Below, piece after piece: positions 1,731 to 54,758 of a stretch of 64,000 bases of DNA. Position 1 is the first letter of the stretch. Every line of letters starts with the position of its first letter. The position numbers and the translations under genes are program-made. This stretch comes from a virus. Taxonomy: Duplodnaviria > Heunggongvirae > Uroviricota > Caudoviricetes. The notes below the pieces were generated by a model. The model saw nothing but the letters and a program-made list of their open reading frames with translations, was not told where the DNA came from and did not search any database. Location of the stretch: IMG/VR virus record IMGVR_UViG_3300011008_000003, one strand, 5' to 3'.

Positions 1731-1961
1731 TTATTTTTTTGTTAACCATATATTATAGATTCGAGTATCTTCTTGTTGCTTCCTGATATTTTCAGGAATG
1801 AACTTTTGATATTCTTCCGGAATATCCGACAAATCAGGTGCCTGTTCGTATTGGGACCATGCATCCTGCTGAGCAATTTGCTGAGCAATCTCGGGCATTC
1901 CCTCGAGAGCTGCTTCAAGGTCAATTGGTCTATCTTTATCGTGTTTGTACTCTGGAATCAT
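1731..1961 (-). CDS. Hypothetical protein (76 aa)
   Basis: ORF co-oriented with and overlapping the infA stop. Confidence 0.6.
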
Positions 1962-2199
1962 ATCTATACTCTATTATACCTTTGGATAAGTCATATTCTG
2001 ATAATTTCACCTGAACCCTATCGTCAGGGAGTATCTTAATACGATTTATCCTGATTTTACCGCATATTGTACATAGTACGACAAAATCGTTGTCAAGTTT
2101 CACGTCAAACATCGCGTTGGCTCGCGCTTCAAGAACTGTGCCATCTACGAAGATTCCGTCTTTGGGCTTTTTAGGACCTTTATTAACTTTCTTCTTCAT
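1936..2199 (-). CDS. infA: Translation initiation factor IF-1
   Basis: [60 protein letters not shown] matches the IF-1 S1/OB-fold pattern throughout. Confidence 0.93.
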
Positions 2200-8714: not shown

Positions 8715-9482
8715 ATGAGATTGAATGAATTCCTAGAACAGTGTATTCCTGCCTATAAACTCAGAGACGTATTATATAATAACGATGAGTTCTTAATCAA
8801 TTATTTATCGGAACCGGAACATAGTTACGGTGTTGCAAGCTTTTATATTGACCGTGATTCACTTCTGGAAGAATTAGAAAATCATGGAATGAAGATGACA
8901 GGCTTCGATAAGATGATTCAAAAGTATGGCTGGTATATATCGTTCATTCGCGGAAATAAAGTTAGCCTTTTGAAACTTAATGGATATGATGAAGGATTCT
9001 ATGATGTTGCTGGTGCACATTTTAGCAATCTATATCTGCACATTTCTAATGCAGGACCATCTAAAATTAAATCCAATGGATTAATTGCTAAAGATTCATT
9101 AGACCCTGAAATTGATATTTCCGGGACAATGAAACGTGGAATTCTATATCCGAATAAGCGTGTATACTTATGGAAGCTTGAAGATATTTCCGGAAATCTT
9201 ACGAAATCTGCTAAAAATTTCGAGGATAGAGTTATTGCAACATTTAGGTCATTATTACGAGGTCTTAATGCTTCTGGTTACGGTATGTATGTTTATTTAG
9301 TAAGATTGCCGGAAGGTCTTAAAACACATTATGACCAAGAATATGGTCCAGAAAATCCAGCACGTTATGTTACACAGAATGTTCCACCTAGCTACATTAA
9401 ATATATCGGAACTGTAACACGACTTGAAGAAATTGTATTGGCTAAAGATTACAGAAGATTAGAGCAAATTCTCGGAATTTAG
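8715..9482 (+). CDS. Putative ADP-ribosyltransferase/Tpt1-like fold protein
   Basis: C-terminal half has LYLHIS..KIKSNGL, RVYLW, VYLVRLP and YVTQNVPPSYI, the spacing typical of H-type ART/Tpt1-like domains. Confidence 0.5.
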   Translation: MRLNEFLEQCIPAYKLRDVLYNNDEFLINYLSEPEHSYGVASFYIDRDSLLEELENHGMKMTGFDKMIQKYGWYISFIRGNKVSLLKLNGYDEGFYDVAGAHFSNLYLHISNAGPSKIKSNGLIAKDSLDPEIDISGTMKRGILYPNKRVYLWKLEDISGNLTKSAKNFEDRVIATFRSLLRGLNASGYGMYVYLVRLPEGLKTHYDQEYGPENPARYVTQNVPPSYIKYIGTVTRLEEIVLAKDYRRLEQILGI

Positions 9483-22066: not shown

Positions 22067-22663
22067 TTAATTATCTCCGCCATACGGGTCGTCGATTGTA
22101 TTAAGATTTTCGTAGAAGTCAAGGCCGCTAATTTCCTTATCCTTATGTTCATTCATTTCATTAAGGTAAAGGTTAATCGCGTTTGTAATCAGCTGAGTTA
22201 CGAATGCGAAGGCGCTTGAATTTCGAGTTTCATCATAACGGTTAATGTACATGAACAAAGTCATCATACATTCTTGACGAATATCTTCAACGTCTTCATA
22301 TGCCGGCGTCTGAATAAGCTTAAACGAAATAATACGGCCGTTAATGACCTTCAAGAACGCGTCACAGATTTCAGCCTTGAGTGCGTCGAATTCTGCATTG
22401 AACTTGCGACGTTCTTCATCACCGAGATTGCGATACTTATTCTGAAGTTCTTCAATTTCTTCACGCTTACGCTTAATAAAGCTCTTCGCGAGAATGTACT
22501 TGTCTTCAGTAACAGTCTTCTTAAGTTTTTTATTTTCGAGCTTACGTTCGTATGGATCACACCATTCGCCTGTATCGTTAATATTCATATGGTTAAATTT
22601 GATTATTAACTCTCTCAGGTACTTATTTGATATGTAACCTTCATCGTTTTTATCCTGCTTCAT
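22067..22663 (-). CDS. 55: Late-transcription sigma factor (T4 gp55-like)
   Basis: YISNKYL at the N-terminus; EDIRQECMMTLFMYINRYD...SAFAFVTQLITNAINLYLNE. Confidence 0.8.
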   Translation of the reverse strand: MKQDKNDEGYISNKYLRELIIKFNHMNINDTGEWCDPYERKLENKKLKKTVTEDKYILAKSFIKRKREEIEELQNKYRNLGDEERRKFNAEFDALKAEICDAFLKVINGRIISFKLIQTPAYEDVEDIRQECMMTLFMYINRYDETRNSSAFAFVTQLITNAINLYLNEMNEHKDKEISGLDFYENLNTIDDPYGGDN

Positions 22664-22758: not shown

Positions 22759-23673
22759 CTAGAAATGCGGAACAGAAGGAACATTAGGCACACTGACACT
22801 ATGTGCTTGTTGCTTTGCTCTGTTGATTTCAGACTTGTTACGTTCGTTTTCTTCCTGCATCATCTTATCGACAATAGCATTTTCGACTTCTACTTCAACC
22901 CATGTCCAGTCATTTGTAATCTGAACATTCGTATATTTGGCAATTCTCGTAATCATTTCAAGAATTTCCATAAGATTGATTGCCGTGAAGAGATTATTGT
23001 CGTTGACAGTCAACGTAACGGAATGTGCCTTATGGCAATTATCACAGACGATGATATATTCGCTTTTAATTCCGCAATAATTTTCATCAATAATGGATTT
23101 AATCGTGATATAATCATAGGCAGATATATTAGTAACGAATTCTACCTTTTCTTCAAATGTCAATGAATCATCGACTATATACATAGCGACTTCTTCAATT
23201 TCATCTTGCGGAATTATATAAGAATCCTTATATTTCGGAATACTTAATTTTAATTCTATCTTTGTATCTGGTAGATAAACATGGTCGATAAACGGTTTCT
23301 CGAGATGTTTAAACTTTAAAGACTCTAGCGTTATACTTTCTTCAATTGGCTGACCACATTCTGTACATTTTGGAATATTGATAGTATAGCCTGTCTTGGA
23401 AGTAAAGCTATTCAACCTGATCCAGAAAATCAAAAATGCACGGTCCGGTAAATATAAGTCTTCAAATTTTAAATTTTCAAGAATAGTGCACTTTTCAAGA
23501 AGTTCGTTACATACGGTCGTTGCGGTCTGAGGAACTAATGTCGCAAGAAACTTGACTTCAAGTACCGTCATGGCACGAATCTTAATCTTGACATTTTTCG
23601 GGTACATCAAGCCACGTGTAGGTAATTCATGCGGATCTACTTGCCAATAGTTATAATTGTCATAATTATGCAT
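22759..23673 (-). CDS. Baseplate hub assembly protein (gp26/gp51-like)
   Basis: LPTRGLMYP...KIRAMTVLEVKFL...DRAFLIFWIRLNSF, CTECG and CDNC zinc pairs. Confidence 0.7.
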   Translation of the reverse strand: MHNYDNYNYWQVDPHELPTRGLMYPKNVKIKIRAMTVLEVKFLATLVPQTATTVCNELLEKCTILENLKFEDLYLPDRAFLIFWIRLNSFTSKTGYTINIPKCTECGQPIEESITLESLKFKHLEKPFIDHVYLPDTKIELKLSIPKYKDSYIIPQDEIEEVAMYIVDDSLTFEEKVEFVTNISAYDYITIKSIIDENYCGIKSEYIIVCDNCHKAHSVTLTVNDNNLFTAINLMEILEMITRIAKYTNVQITNDWTWVEVEVENAIVDKMMQEENERNKSEINRAKQQAHSVSVPNVPSVPHF

Positions 23674-24293
23674 TAGATACCTTCAGGATTCAAGTTAATT
23701 TCAGCTATACCATTAAATACACCTGGACCAAAAGCACCGACATAAGGAACAGGCGTAGTGACACACATTTTAATCGCACTGTCAAGTCGTTTTTCAATTA
23801 TATTCCAAACTTCCTTTGTAGCATCCGGCGTAACTTCGGGGTCAGGATTAATCTGCTGTAATTCCAGCATCATATCTTCGGCTATAATCGGAAAATGCGA
23901 AGTCACCATTGCACCAGTTGCAATTCCTGGAATTATCGGTGCGGCAGTCCATGTAACAATTTGACCGGTAATCTTAATACCGATATAATTGAATAAATTT
24001 ACGAGACCGCCTGCAGGAACAGAAACTGCAGCAATTACTTCCGGAACAAGTAACATAAAAGATTCGAAAATCGGGCGGCAAATTTTTAACGGCGTTGCAG
24101 GAGTACCGAGAACGGCCGTAGCACCTGAAGGATAAGTTACAGTTCCGTAGATATTACAATAGACTTTTGAAAAATAAATCATCAGCCATTCATTCAATGC
24201 GTCTGTCATTGCCGTAATACTGGCTAACTGATTAGTCGTCGAATCAAGTGCAGAAAATTTAGGTTTCAAGCAATCGTCGTATAAGCTAATCAT
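23673..24293 (-). CDS. Hypothetical protein (206 aa)
   Basis: ORF translationally coupled between terL-C and the hub gene. Confidence 0.75.
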   Translation of the reverse strand: MISLYDDCLKPKFSALDSTTNQLASITAMTDALNEWLMIYFSKVYCNIYGTVTYPSGATAVLGTPATPLKICRPIFESFMLLVPEVIAAVSVPAGGLVNLFNYIGIKITGQIVTWTAAPIIPGIATGAMVTSHFPIIAEDMMLELQQINPDPEVTPDATKEVWNIIEKRLDSAIKMCVTTPVPYVGAFGPGVFNGIAEINLNPEGI

Positions 24294-25045
24294 TTAAAGT
24301 CCGCCCAGAAGTCTTCATTGTATTCGCCCGCATCCGCCATCATATCTATAGTCATTTCATCCTGTTCTTTCTTGTCCTCGACATGTCTGATATTTTCCAT
24401 ATCGATTTCCGGCTGCATAGTTGCATAGACTGCCCAGTAGAGCGCGGAAACAGTATCGTCGTGACAACCCTTAACAGCTTTAAAGACGTTAGGCGTATTT
24501 TGTTCTTCGAATGTTGACAATTCCTTAATAGTAACTGCGTTATGAACTTTAAGGAATCCGGCATCCATAACTCGCTGTAATTCCATACATGCATCAAGCT
24601 TGGAACGCTTGTCTGCCTTGGTACCGAGGCCGTGTCCGGCTTTTTCGGTATTAATCATATTCGTATTCTCGAGCGTATACCAAAGTTCTTCAGCTACCTG
24701 CTTACCGACATCGTTATTTTCAAGGATGTAATAGGCGTTATTGTACATCTTTGAAATAAAGTCGATTTTTCTTGAGAACTCGCCAGGTTTGACGGTATTC
24801 GAACGATAGATTGCAACCTGTTCCATATCGTTCTTCGCACGGATTTCGATAACCTGTACACATGCATAGTCACCGCCGACACCTGAACAACAGTCAACTC
24901 CCATGACATATAAAGCGCCTGGTTTCGGCCTTGCATAAATTTCAAGAGTGAGGTCTTCAAATAATGTTTCGATAGGTTCTGATTCCATAAGCTTCTCGAG
25001 ACATTCAGAAGAAATAAGTGTCGGAGAAGAACCAATGAACGAGCA
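24290..25045 (-). CDS. 17: Large terminase C-terminal nuclease extein (T4 gp17-like); part of ORF 24290-25348
   Basis: CSFIGSSPTLIS junction; RNase H-like motifs MGVDCCSGVGGDY, LENNDVG, HDDTVSALYWA; ATPase domain absent. Confidence 0.9.
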   Translation of the reverse strand, partial: CSFIGSSPTLISSECLEKLMESEPIETLFEDLTLEIYARPKPGALYVMGVDCCSGVGGDYACVQVIEIRAKNDMEQVAIYRSNTVKPGEFSRKIDFISKMYNNAYYILENNDVGKQVAEELWYTLENTNMINTEKAGHGLGTKADKRSKLDACMELQRVMDAGFLKVHNAVTIKELSTFEEQNTPNVFKAVKGCHDDTVSALYWAVYATMQPEIDMENIRHVEDKKEQDEMTIDMMADAGEYNEDFWADFK

Positions 25046-25348
25046 GTTATGATTTATAAGCCCGTTATTCGTAGAATAGAGCCCGCCGTCAACATTTACA
25101 GGAGTATATACGGTTCGTTTTCCGGTTTCCTCTACAGAAATAACCGTACTTTCACTAAACTGTGTATTCTTTACCAAGTCTCCCGGTTTTAACTTGCATG
25201 CCTCAATCTCTCTACCGTCGGGCAATGTAAGCTTATGGTCGTCAGAGCACTTGATTTCGCAATTATCGAAAACTACATGTAATGTATCTGCAAGTTTTTT
25301 AGAGAAGCCTTCGAACTTCTTGTATTTTTCACCGAGTTTGATAAACAT
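25046..25348 (-). mobile_element. C-fragment of an atypically split intein (101 aa) at the N-terminus of terL-C
   Basis: Block B IKCSDDH, block F VYTPVNV, block G terminal HN followed by +1 Cys; block A missing; ORF has its own Met directly after the regA stop. Confidence 0.88.
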
Positions 25349-25355
25349 ATTTTTC

Positions 25356-25781
25356 TTAGGCTAGGTTATTTATATTGAATTTCTTTACTTTCTTATATTC
25401 CTTCGCGTCCTTATATGAAACGATGTCGATTCTTGTATTATGCGGTTCGATGTCTTCGGGATGCATAATCTTAATCATATTCCAGCTAGCAAGCAGGAAA
25501 GCTATAGAATTCCTACGCTGAATATCTTCCAGAGATACATTGCCGAAGCCGTGATAACCGGTTTTGCTCGTACCCATGGTAAAGAGCTGCTTGAAGTGAG
25601 CTAGGTAGAAAGAATCGAAATTCTTATAAAGGTGGCACGACTGGTAAATAATCTTGTTGACCTTATCGACGATGCCGATTCTTGTCAGTGTCTCGTTAAT
25701 AATGCGTTCGTCGACAAGAGGCTTGATAAGAAGTAGTTTGTTAGTTTCGTACATATCAGTATTCCTCAGGTTTCCAGTCAA
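25356..25781 (-). CDS. regA: Translational repressor RegA
   Basis: INETLTRIGIVDKVNKIIYQSCHL....YLAHFKQLF...NVSLEDIQRRNSIAFLLASWNMI. Confidence 0.92.
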   Translation of the reverse strand: MTGNLRNTDMYETNKLLLIKPLVDERIINETLTRIGIVDKVNKIIYQSCHLYKNFDSFYLAHFKQLFTMGTSKTGYHGFGNVSLEDIQRRNSIAFLLASWNMIKIMHPEDIEPHNTRIDIVSYKDAKEYKKVKKFNINNLA

Positions 25782-26178: not shown

Positions 26179-26190
26179 ACATTATTTATA

Positions 26191-26238: not shown

Positions 26239-27036
26239 CTAGATTTTCGGCAAGAAGAACGACGGAGAGAACGGAATAGGAATTTCGATTTCTTCATCGC
26301 AGTGAGAACACTTGAACTTTCCGTAAGGAGTAGCGATAAACATGTAGTCACTGACAAGATTCGTAAACTTCGTGAACGACATGCCGTCAAGTTCGCTGAC
26401 ATATTCGTATGCGGTAAGCAATGTTACTTCGCGGCCGTTAATCTTTGTAATGTAACTAGAGAAGTCAAGAAGACCCGGGTCGATGTCGAGAAGCGTATTG
26501 GGGTCATTCTTAATCTTTTCTACTGCCATTTCGGTGTTGATAGTCGGATATTCGATAGAAATCTGGTCGCCGTTAATTTCAAAATATTCCGGCAGAGGCT
26601 TTTCATAATAGGAAACAGAAAGATTCTTGAGTACAAAATCATAATGGGCGATTGTACCGCAGTTCTTACATTCGTAACGGACCTTAAAAGGAATATCATT
26701 ATAGGTATAAGAACGAAGGAAGAAAATAAGCCAGATTTTATCTGCTACGAGAATCTTTGTATAGTCGAATCCGTTACCGTCCCAGATGGAAGTCTTAAGG
26801 ATATTGTTGATAACGAAGTTCGAATTCTGTTCTGTAATGGTGGCGAGCTTCTTAATATTGATTGTGGAGAGTTTCTTCACATAAATCTTGTCTGGATAGA
26901 ACATTCCTTTGGAAGGTAATAAACTCTTGTCCAACAGTATAGCGTTCTTAGGCGGCTGATTAACAATTCCAGCAAGGATGTCTTTGACAGAGCCATTTTT
27001 TGGATCGTTACTGATGTCTATTTTTTCTGATTTCAT
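26239..27036 (-). CDS. Baseplate hub assembly protein (second gp26/gp51-like paralog)
   Basis: LPSKGMFYP...VKKLSTINIKKL...DKIWLIFFLRSYTY, CKNCG and CSHC zinc pairs. Confidence 0.7.
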   Translation of the reverse strand: MKSEKIDISNDPKNGSVKDILAGIVNQPPKNAILLDKSLLPSKGMFYPDKIYVKKLSTINIKKLATITEQNSNFVINNILKTSIWDGNGFDYTKILVADKIWLIFFLRSYTYNDIPFKVRYECKNCGTIAHYDFVLKNLSVSYYEKPLPEYFEINGDQISIEYPTINTEMAVEKIKNDPNTLLDIDPGLLDFSSYITKINGREVTLLTAYEYVSELDGMSFTKFTNLVSDYMFIATPYGKFKCSHCDEEIEIPIPFSPSFFLPKI

Positions 27037-27074
27037 ATATTCACCTCAAGTTTTAACAATTTATTTATAAGAAA

Positions 27075-47328: not shown

Positions 47329-50091
47329 TTAATTATCTTGATAATATTGAACGTTAATTATATTACGTAAGCAAGCACGTTCCATTTGTGTGCTGAAATT
47401 CGTAATATTATTGTTATTGTCGAGAATGGAGTCACAAATACCAGGTTTAATCTTCGGATAAATATCCATAATCAAATTAGTGATATGTTCCCATTCACCG
47501 TCATAGATATTAGAATCTGCCTTAATTTTACCAGCATAATAGGTATCGATAATCTTCGGAACAAGGTAGTTCCAGAAAGAATTTTCAGATAATGTCATTT
47601 CATTATCGAGACTAATGCTACCTTTACGCATAATGGTTTCTTCACGTGTATTAACATTACTGGAAGTAACAGTATAAGGCAAATAAATTGCACGCTGGGC
47701 AGAAGTAATAGTATAAAGCTTATTAGCAAGCCAGTCATCGACAAGCGATTGAATAGATTTAATTTGGTCAGGAGCCAGATTATATTCATCGGTCTTATAC
47801 GGAGAGAATGTCGTACTAGAATAGAAGTCATTAGTATTCGGAAGAACGATGTTGAATTGTTCAATATTATCAAAATCAACCGTACCATCTTGTAATGCTT
47901 TCGGAGTCAAGACGATAAAGTTTTCATTTTCTGAAACTTCAGCAGAGAATGTATTAGTTTGAATAATAACTTTAGTATCAGCACCGCTTTTAGTTTCGGT
48001 TTTTAGAATGTCGATTTCGATATTTCTTTCTTCAAACATCTTAGCGAACATCTTATTACCGTAAGCATCAATATTCGGAATCTTAACTTCATTCCACCAG
48101 AAATCACCATGGTCTCTTTTCAATTGTGCTTCTTTTGTAAGTCCACCAGCAGATTCAGTATAGCTATTGAGAACTGTTGTATAGGTTTCAAGAGATTTGT
48201 TCTGAATGAATTCATAACCCGGAGAAACCTTCTTATTCCAGAAATACTTCTTAAGGTCAGATTTAATAAGTTCAGAAACTTTGAAATCAATATCAGTAGA
48301 AACAGTTGCCGGATGTTCGTTATAAAGCTTTATAATTTCAGATTTATAAATCTTTTTATGCGTAGAAACACGAGAATCGAGATATTCATAAACACGATTC
48401 TTCATTTCGTTCATGTATGCTTCAATATCAGTTAACGGCTTAACATAGACAGTACCGACAGCATCAAAATATTGAACATATGGAGGCAAAGAGAAGATAA
48501 CAGAGTTAATTTCAGAATTAAATTGACAATTCTTATTGATTAACTGAATATTACGTAGCCATTGGTCTTGCGGATTTTCAGAATATTGACAATTATAGAA
48601 ACCCTGATAAGACTTTAGCAATTTGATATAGTCGCAAAGATGTTCAAGATACTTGTTGCCATAAAGCGAGAATGTATCTGTTGTATTGTAGTCGTCTTCT
48701 GTAAGAACATTTCTAACTGTCCAGTTACCATTTGGGTTCTTAAGATATAAATGACCCATGAGGCAGTAAATAATGTTATTCTGACAAAGCGGATGCAGGA
48801 ATCCGATTGTATCTTCAATATCGTGCTGACCGAATACCATGGCAGTCTGAACTGTCATCGGGCTAGAAAGTGCACGGAAGTAAGACATATAATCGTCACG
48901 TGTAATAAGCTTGCCACGAGAAGAGAAATATGCAGGAGCATTGATTTTCATGCTTGCCTGACTTTCAAAATTTTCACCACCGTAAATGTCAGAATTGATA
49001 ATGAACTGAACGTTATTAGTTAAAGAAACAATACTACCCTTGACAGAAACGTTAATCTGGTTGTTATGCGTCATAACGGCACCATTTACGCCGACAGTAT
49101 TAGCTTCCTTGCCTTTTGTAGTAAGATATTTAACATAAAGATTATCCTTATCAGACTTTAAACCGATACTAGCAATATTCGGTTCAGAACTGAAAGTAAC
49201 ACGAACAGTTTTATCCGGGTTCGTATCGATGAGACAAATTTTAAGCGGTTCTTCTGGAAGAGTACCATTTAAATTGATAATGTCGTCACTGAGGTAAATG
49301 GATTGGGTTTCAATCTTATAGATATTTTCCTTATTGAATGCGTCAACTTCGTCAGCGCCGATACCTACCTGACACCAGCTGAGGGTTGGGTCATAGACAT
49401 TTTCAATAAATGCATACGGGTCACGCTTACCATACCAGTTAGAGAAATTGACATCATCGACATCATAGAACTGACAAGGTTCGCCAAGTTTCTTGATATT
49501 GGCAGTTCCGAGGAATTCAACAATTTTCTGTTCTGCCTGGAAACATTTAATCGGGGTTGTATTAACTGTATTATAAAGGTTGATGCCGATTAACGGGATA
49601 TATTCGCTTGATTCTTGTGGAACGGCAAAAGTCAAATCTCTATACCAGTCAGAAGAGGTACCGTTGATAATATCTTCTTCGGTAAATACATAGCTATATC
49701 CGTTGTCGAGAATAAACGGATTTCCGTTGAACATAAGCTTCGTAGTATCACGGTTAAAGAAAACTTCAGTACCAGCAGTCAATGTAGCTGGAAGAGGACC
49801 TTTAATTCTGATAACAAGTTCACAACGTGCAGGTACTGGACGTCTCGGATTATATCCAAGATTTTTACAATGCTTGATTATGCTAGAATCGAGCTTAGCC
49901 GTAGAAATAAAACCTTCTTCAGCGGTACGCTGGATATAGAAGTTGGTCATATCGGTAACAGCGGCAAGCATTTCAGTGAACATGCCGAAAATCGTTGCCG
50001 AGGTTATGTTTTTAAAGCGCGGATCTGATTTTAATCTTGCTTGAAACTGCTGTACAAGCTGATTATATGTAACGTTCAAGTAATTAAGCAT
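47329..50091 (-). CDS. 6: Baseplate wedge subunit (T4 gp6-like)
   Basis: FGMFTEMLA..TDMTNFYIQRTAEEGFISTAKL.SSIIKHCKNLGYNPRRPVPA; GGENFESQASMKINAPAYFSSRGKLITRDDY. Confidence 0.9.
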   Translation of the reverse strand: MLNYLNVTYNQLVQQFQARLKSDPRFKNITSATIFGMFTEMLAAVTDMTNFYIQRTAEEGFISTAKLDSSIIKHCKNLGYNPRRPVPARCELVIRIKGPLPATLTAGTEVFFNRDTTKLMFNGNPFILDNGYSYVFTEEDIINGTSSDWYRDLTFAVPQESSEYIPLIGINLYNTVNTTPIKCFQAEQKIVEFLGTANIKKLGEPCQFYDVDDVNFSNWYGKRDPYAFIENVYDPTLSWCQVGIGADEVDAFNKENIYKIETQSIYLSDDIINLNGTLPEEPLKICLIDTNPDKTVRVTFSSEPNIASIGLKSDKDNLYVKYLTTKGKEANTVGVNGAVMTHNNQINVSVKGSIVSLTNNVQFIINSDIYGGENFESQASMKINAPAYFSSRGKLITRDDYMSYFRALSSPMTVQTAMVFGQHDIEDTIGFLHPLCQNNIIYCLMGHLYLKNPNGNWTVRNVLTEDDYNTTDTFSLYGNKYLEHLCDYIKLLKSYQGFYNCQYSENPQDQWLRNIQLINKNCQFNSEINSVIFSLPPYVQYFDAVGTVYVKPLTDIEAYMNEMKNRVYEYLDSRVSTHKKIYKSEIIKLYNEHPATVSTDIDFKVSELIKSDLKKYFWNKKVSPGYEFIQNKSLETYTTVLNSYTESAGGLTKEAQLKRDHGDFWWNEVKIPNIDAYGNKMFAKMFEERNIEIDILKTETKSGADTKVIIQTNTFSAEVSENENFIVLTPKALQDGTVDFDNIEQFNIVLPNTNDFYSSTTFSPYKTDEYNLAPDQIKSIQSLVDDWLANKLYTITSAQRAIYLPYTVTSSNVNTREETIMRKGSISLDNEMTLSENSFWNYLVPKIIDTYYAGKIKADSNIYDGEWEHITNLIMDIYPKIKPGICDSILDNNNNITNFSTQMERACLRNIINVQYYQDN

Positions 50092-54582: not shown

Positions 54583-54758
54583 TATAATTTCTCCTAAATT
54601 ATTTCTTTTTATTATTTATAATGGTGAACAGATATTTAGAGTTTTCATAAAAACATTTAGAAATTTTATAAATAATTTATATAAATCCAAATTTGTGAGT
54701 GAGTGAAATTCTGTTTATTTGTGTTTATTTAAGTTTATAAAATTATTTAGGAGAATTT

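Follow-up and report, generated by a model that had tools for sequence, protein, structure and literature searches.

INTRODUCTION

The closest described relatives of the locus reported here are the atypically split inteins of phage large terminases (TerL). AceL-TerL, with an N-piece (IntN) of 25 aa, GOS-TerL, with one of 37 aa, and the consensus intein Cat (30 plus 104 aa) are characterized trans-splicing members of this family (PMC11766414), in which IntN comprises about 25 to 37 aa and the C-piece (IntC) about 100 to 122 aa (PMC11766414, PMC2677866). The corresponding gene arrangement was described by Dassa in 2009: a gp17-like terminase is "fractured" at an unusual point, with a long C-part that holds all N-motifs except N1, and in such fractured genes the two parts lie next to each other, separated by a gene for a free-standing homing endonuclease (PMC2677866). 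We found the adjacent layout in two contigs (L065 and L066), in which a Terminase_6N gene is followed by a NUMOD3 or DUF723 gene and then by an IntC-Terminase_6C gene, and also in Providencia phage PSTRCR_127 and in Vibrio phages.

A second point of reference is DnaE of cyanobacteria, an essential enzyme whose two parts are encoded by distant genes of the same chromosome and must be ligated by protein trans-splicing. DnaE is a cellular gene, and the break in its intein is at the canonical site of endonuclease insertion, which leaves a long IntN and a short IntC.

Here, we analyzed a 64-kb stretch of DNA of a tailed phage from IMG/VR (in the following, "the window"), on which one gene had been predicted to encode the second half of a large terminase fused to an intein fragment. 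The locus shares with GOS-TerL, AceL-TerL, and Cat a short IntN that holds block A only (here 36 aa), a long IntC of about 101 to 104 aa with blocks B, F, and G, a T4-type large terminase as carrier, and a Cys at position +1. As in the fractured gene of Dassa, a split intein interrupts the gene of a phage enzyme, and the break in the terminase has the same unusual position. However, position 4 of block F (F:4) is occupied by Thr instead of Asp, the halves are 45 to 58 kb apart in relatives, with no endonuclease gene between them, and they lie in different genome modules and mostly on opposite strands. Furthermore, the carriers are a clade of phages of about 410 to 424 kb. With DnaE, the locus has in common that the genes of an essential enzyme are far apart on one chromosome, whereas the split site and the host protein are different and DnaE is a cellular gene.

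RESULTS

A terminase nuclease gene that starts with an intein piece

The gene and its surroundings comprise the following features, all on the minus strand.

24290..25348, minus strand: TerL C-half gene (IntC plus gp17-type nuclease domain), 352 aa plus stop; from the ORF list and the translation
25046..25348, minus strand: IntC, the long C-piece of an atypically split mini-intein, residues 1-101; from the CatC match, the fold model, and selection
25235..25252, minus strand: block B, KCSDDH, in which S35 and H38 make up the T/S-x-x-H motif; from the translation
25085..25114, minus strand: block F, TVYTPVNVDG, with Thr82 at F:4, where Asp is usual; from the translation
25043..25066, minus strand: block G and the first extein residue, NGLINHN/C (H100, N101, and C+1 = C102); from the translation
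24293..25045, minus strand: C-extein, residues 102-352, the terminase nuclease domain; from PF17289 and the profile match to gp17 structures
24428-24904, minus strand: match to Terminase_6C (PF17289), residues 149-307; Pfam, E 1.4e-13
25367..25374, minus strand: T4-type late promoter consensus TATAAATA, 19-26 nt upstream of the C-half ATG, inside the 3' end of regA
25356..25781, minus strand: regA (translational repressor), a conserved upstream neighbor outside the terminase; PF01818, E 3e-24; phrog_242

The translation agrees with the original prediction of a 101-aa N-terminal intein fragment that holds blocks B, F, and G but not block A and is followed by the gp17 nuclease domain, and the gene immediately upstream is regA, as had been stated, with only 7 nt between its end and the ATG of the C-half. 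The frame of the C-half has four open codons above the ATG (stop-to-stop 24293-25360), and therefore block A cannot be encoded upstream of it. Its neighbors are regA and a 206-aa ORF; there is no homing endonuclease adjacent to the gene. A GIY-YIG-like endonuclease suggested by a weak tblastn match at 1749-1835 of the window (E 0.031) was discarded, as the ORFs at this place have no endonuclease features.

A profile of the clade matched the gp17 structures of RB49 and T4 (3c6a, 3ezk, and 3cpe; E 1e-25 to 9e-24), with the matches starting at profile positions 99-110, and in this alignment the C-extein begins at about residue 351 of the T4 gp17 chain 3ezk_A. The insertion point is thus the ATPase-nuclease linker of T4-type TerL: Terminase_6N stops at IntN, and Terminase_6C follows IntC.

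Identity and fold of IntC

The best match of residues 1-125 in a sequence search of the PDB was the "Consensus engineered intein CatC" (6dsl_B; phmmer, E 1.3e-5, residues 8-105). In the alignment, EIKCSDDH stands opposite EIKCSDNH and NGLINHNC opposite NGIVSHAC, so that the motifs EIKCSDxH and NG(L/I)xxH are common to both; compared with the clade profile, CatC scored an E of 1.4e-4. An AlphaFold model of residues 1-104 had a mean pLDDT of 75, and its final 10 residues were disordered, as expected for an IntC without its partner. When this model was compared with the PDB by Foldseek, the top 36 matches were all structures of inteins or HINT domains (VidaL, gp41-1, NpuDnaB, Cat, and others). 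The leading match was VidaL (6vgv; E 3.2e-5, TMq 0.67), whose split topology is likewise atypical, although the two have only about 20% of their residues in common and match weakly at the sequence level (E 0.75). The IntN of VidaL is much shorter. No intein model of Pfam matched IntC, even at E values up to 10. On the basis of the PDB match, the family search described below, and the fold, IntC is an intein piece.

A family profile of IntC retrieved 646 clusters (at 50% identity) among 1.84 billion proteins; the residue counts given here refer to the 135 profile matches in hand that cover the domain. The IntC-like domain is N-terminal in 86 of these and internal in 49. Among the family proteins of 340-400 aa, 9 of 10 sampled consist of IntC and Terminase_6C, and the long family proteins are contiguous terminases that hold Intein_splicing domains. 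Block B had been regarded as peculiar, but CSDDH turned out to conform to the family norm ("CSxDH"): the Cys is present in 101 of the 135 matches, the next residue is Ser in 61 and Thr in 68, the His is present in 134, and Cat itself has CSDNH. The Thr in block F is indeed unusual, as had been noted: F:4 is Asp in 101 of the 135 matches and Thr in 22, and each of the 22 proteins with Thr comes from this clade or its fringe and carries IntC at its N-terminus. Asp at F:4 is common in inteins, not universal, and helps to coordinate the splicing steps in the inteins studied. With Thr at this position, splicing kinetics or even splicing competence may differ.

The ATPase half lies on the same chromosome in related phages

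As the original prediction had it, the window holds no terminase ATPase gene: tblastn with three N-halves gave nothing, and a clade-specific HMM run over all six frames (--max) had a best E of 0.76. Terminase_6N was then searched on four whole related IMG/VR records (G002-G005). Each has a Terminase_6N ORF of 306-308 aa that ends in QEYA/CL..E.ITV...ELW.DGF.K and a stop, in which the part after the slash is a 36-aa IntN, and hence the gp17 ATPase ORF with a Cys-initiated IntN that had been proposed as a check exists in the relatives. The positions of the two halves are as follows.

G005, a 69-kb contig with a C-half 97% identical to that of the window: N-half starts at 54,658 (plus strand), C-half at 9,310 (minus strand); 45.3 kb apart, divergent
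G003, 411 kb: N-half on the minus strand, C-half on the plus strand; 58.5 kb apart, divergent
G004, 291 kb: N-half on the plus strand, C-half on the minus strand; 58.5 kb apart, divergent
G002, 424 kb, with terminal repeats and rated complete: N-half 185,460-186,380 (plus strand), C-half from 239,806 (plus strand); 53.4 kb apart, same strand

The halves had been called unlinked; instead, one phage chromosome carries both of them, 45 to 58 kb apart in these relatives. Collinearity between the window and G005 extends to the last position of the window (64,000, which pairs with position 47,705 of G005), and therefore the N-half is expected a few kilobases beyond the right end of the window. Synteny thus suggests that the N-half of this genome lies on the strand opposite to the C-half, in the head-morphogenesis module just past the right end. 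A more distant relative (P0043) has the downstream synteny of the window and a TnpB gene, with no N-half upstream.

The partner gene carries block A, with C273 and L274 (QEYA/CL) invariant in seven N-halves. The representative N-half (P0002, 308 aa) is from contig L036, which comes from the same metagenome as the 99%-identical contig G001. A PDB sequence search with the 47-aa tail of the N-half gave only chance matches to HMG proteins, as IntN is too short for such a search. The intein belongs to the atypically split TerL family, as is evident from its sequence, its host protein, and the sites at which it is split and inserted. The short-IntN/long-IntC architecture that had been likened to the AceL-TerL type is thereby borne out, with an IntN of 36 aa, an IntC of 101 aa, and the CatC match.

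Conservation and selection

In IMG/VR, 21 related contigs were found, at identities of 57 to 99%; the beginning of the C-half gene is present in 20 of them. The C-half is intact as far as the contig reaches in all 20, and regA is found upstream, directly or within about 3 kb, in 18 of the 18 that have upstream sequence. These data bear on the rival explanation that the split is an assembly artefact and that the true gene is contiguous, with a cis-intein. The C-half is present in 20 independent contigs from many metagenomes, with regA upstream wherever the sequence reaches, and about 20 independent contigs have an N-half that stops right after IntN. A search of the clade for longer proteins with this IntC, that is, for a contiguous cis-form, found none, which is weak evidence in itself. 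Misassembly, which the original prediction had named as a way in which it could fail, is practically excluded by the independent contigs.

Down to 57% identity, C34, S35, D37, H38, T82, P83, V84, and the stretch from N95 to S108 are invariant in the C-halves of the clade, as is QEYA-C273-L274 in the N-halves. In terms of catalysis, this means that C1, S35, H38, H100, N101, and C102 do not vary across the clade. Both intein pieces are under purifying selection, with dN/dS values of 0.06-0.25 for IntC and about 0.05 for IntN; the nuclease extein had values of 0.015-0.14.

The complete genome G002 has a single Terminase_6C above the Pfam cut-off, which is the IntC-fused one, and hence the IntC-fused gene supplies the terminase nuclease of this phage. 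A second Terminase_6N paralogue, which is 41% identical to the N-half, comprises the ATPase only and ends at the intein insertion site, is present in G002, G003, and G004. Its presence would fit a situation in which packaging relies on another terminase and the two halves are independent of each other or the C-half is in decay. However, the paralogue has no nuclease domain to go with its ATPase, only one Terminase_6C is available in the complete genome, and no contig that spans the entire C-half shows it disrupted, its extein being under the constraint given above. We therefore regard independent or decaying halves as very unlikely.

A different question is whether the conserved intein pieces still splice. 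It is imaginable that they serve as a tight, noncovalent docking module and that the terminase works as an ATPase chain plus a nuclease chain. A two-chain enzyme is physically conceivable, as the split is at the boundary of the ATPase and nuclease domains, and one report offers a precedent for domains derived from mobile elements that merely assemble a split enzyme (PMC3045599). Furthermore, Thr replaces the Asp at F:4 throughout the clade, and the penultimate His is lost in some Thr-bearing outliers (NKNC, NYNC, and HRNC). Docking, however, would need none of the residues Cys1, S35/H38, H100, N101, and Cys+1, and these do not vary among lineages in which about 40% of all residues differ. Moreover, the position of Asn101 is Asn in all 135 family matches, and Cys+1 is present in all 22 Thr forms but one, which is truncated. 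On balance, docking without splicing appears improbable, and trans-splicing is the reading that we favor.

Fit of the two halves

When residues 1-272 of the N-half and 102-352 of the C-half were joined in silico, the product of 523 aa could be aligned across the junction without a gap to TerL of Synechococcus phage S-P4, which is contiguous (QTFMQEYA/CSFIGSSPTLIS versus QQFRVEFE/CEFLGSVDTLIS in S-P4). The TerL of S-P4 has a native Cys at the position corresponding to +1 (RVEFE/CEFLGS). In addition, when the N-half was compared with contiguous phage TerLs by tblastn, the matches extended no further than residue 273, the first residue of the intein.

The complex of IntC (residues 1-130) and the end of the N-half (residues 255-308) was also modeled. 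The score was 0.70, compared with 0.01 for the best of three controls; of the solved complexes, 58 of 80 attained this mark, as did 2 of 110 mismatched pairs, which is a rough guide only, as the alignments used for our model were our own. Three runs shared at least 71% of the contacts, and the pLDDT of the partner was at least 69. In the model, IntN residues 269-285 are packed against IntC residues 1-4, block B (32-39), block F (78-84), and block G with the +1 position (99-104). The model supports binding of IntN and IntC, short of proof; as the similar Cat complex (6DSL) has been solved, the score is to be read as likeness to it and may reflect reproduction of a known structure.

Expression signals

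The motif TATAAATA occurs 33 times in the window, compared with 8.8 expected occurrences, and none of 100 shuffles reached 33. In most related lineages, TATAAATA or CATAAATA is found 26-47 nt upstream of both halves. A gene for a weakly gp55-like sigma factor lies near the C-half (22067-22663; Sigma70_r2, E 3.5e-4, below the Pfam cut-off). From these motifs, late co-expression of both halves is plausible. Another motif common to both upstream regions, TATATTATTTATAG, was rejected as a signal of its own; it is merely the reverse complement of a late promoter facing the other way.

DISCUSSION

Our data point to a gene that encodes the C-half of the only large terminase of this phage, and we infer, with high confidence, that this half is joined to a distant ATPase-IntN half by protein trans-splicing. 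In our model, two precursors would be made, one consisting of IntC (101 aa) and the nuclease and the other of the ATPase domain (272 aa) and a 36-aa IntN that begins with CL, and each half would be transcribed late from a TATAAATA promoter of its own. After translation, the short IntN would dock into the partly folded IntC and complete the HINT fold, and the intein would then excise itself by protein trans-splicing. The chemistry would involve formation of a thioester at Cys1, attack by Cys+1, and cyclization of Asn101, aided by S35/H38 of block B and H100 of block G. The predicted product is a contiguous terminase of 523 aa in which the ATPase-nuclease linker contains the junction FMQEYA-CSFIGSS, and the tryptic peptide expected to span the junction of the spliced terminase is DLGIQTFMQEYACSFIGSSPTLISSECLEK.

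One may speculate further that the split has been co-opted as an assembly checkpoint. The separate late transcription units, a splicing reaction retuned or slowed by the Thr at F:4, and a paralogue that competes or cooperates with the N-half would together set the amount of nuclease-competent terminase posttranslationally. We consider such a checkpoint unlikely.

The intein family as such is known from the work of Dassa in 2009 and from AceL-TerL, GOS-TerL, and Cat, and other lineages keep the adjacent layout of N-half, endonuclease, and C-half. What is new is the scattering of the halves without an endonuclease, together with the clade-specific Thr at F:4. In the literature searched, we found no paper on scattered terminase halves in a phage; as coverage was incomplete, this is weak evidence of novelty.

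The intein had also been put forward as a candidate for a new protein-ligation tool. It does add another member to the family, and for engineering it offers diverged atypical split inteins that are possibly orthogonal and have a natural Thr at F:4. However, the gain is modest, because the family has already been exploited and an IntN of 36 aa is not shorter than the 25-aa IntN of AceL-TerL (PMC11766414).

In sum, protein trans-splicing appears to be indispensable for making the sole DNA-packaging motor throughout a clade of very large T4-like phages, in which the halves of the terminase gene have been carried into different genome modules. Together with the lineages in which the halves are adjacent and accompanied by an endonuclease, the scattered halves without an endonuclease described here provide a natural series for the fixation of a split intein. 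If the model is true, this terminase would represent, in a virus, what DnaE represents in cyanobacteria.

Gene neighborhood of the terminase C-half

In the window, the block of regA and the C-half gene (IntC plus nuclease domain) lies between a pair of T4 baseplate-hub-like ORFs that are paralogues of each other (PF12322 and phrog_150) and that each match phrog_13792. The stop codon of the C-half gene lies in a 4-nt overlap (ATGA) with an ORF of 206 aa that had no match in Pfam or PHROG.

26239-27036 (-), baseplate-hub-like ORF
22759-23673 (-), baseplate-hub-like ORF
23673-24293 (-), 206-aa ORF

Between the window and the related locus L007, the 206-aa ORF is only 57% identical, whereas the adjoining C-half and regA are 97% identical in the same pair. 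Its locus is a local hot spot of divergence or exchange. In the more distant relative that carries the IntC-nuclease protein P0043, the gene for this protein is preceded, at a distance of ~600 nt, by an IS605-type OrfB/TnpB gene (L062:4147-5403, -), in the place held by regA in the window's clade.

Across the whole window there is a strong excess of the T4 late-promoter consensus TATAAATA (33 sites versus 8.8 expected), with sites frequently back to back in divergent intergenic regions, and a weak match to a gp55-like sigma gene is present.

25367-25374, 26183-26190 and 27062-27069, examples of late-promoter sites
22067-22663, weak match to a gp55-like sigma gene

Variation of the N-half and a terminase paralogue

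In one lineage, from metagenome 3300001598 (L044:224-1270, +), the N-half tail after QEYA/CLWGDEKITV comprises 59 instead of 36 aa, with a Lys/Glu-rich extension past the intein-like part. Furthermore, three related phages have a second terminase paralogue of 267 to 308 aa that consists of the ATPase domain only (Terminase_6N, E = 1.9e-16), without intein and nuclease, and is 41% identical to the N-half.

L030:1342-2268 (-), paralogue in G002
L031, paralogue in G004
L032, paralogue in G003

It ends at or slightly beyond the intein insertion site (...NSEF/SGKFKEE* or ...QEYDTQFLGS...) and was found neither in the window nor in the 69-kb contig G005.

A phage-encoded initiation factor

The window also contains an ORF of 87 aa with a match to translation initiation factor IF-1 (PF01176, E = 9.8e-20).

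1936-2199 (-), IF-1

By virtue of this match, the phage has an IF-1 of its own.
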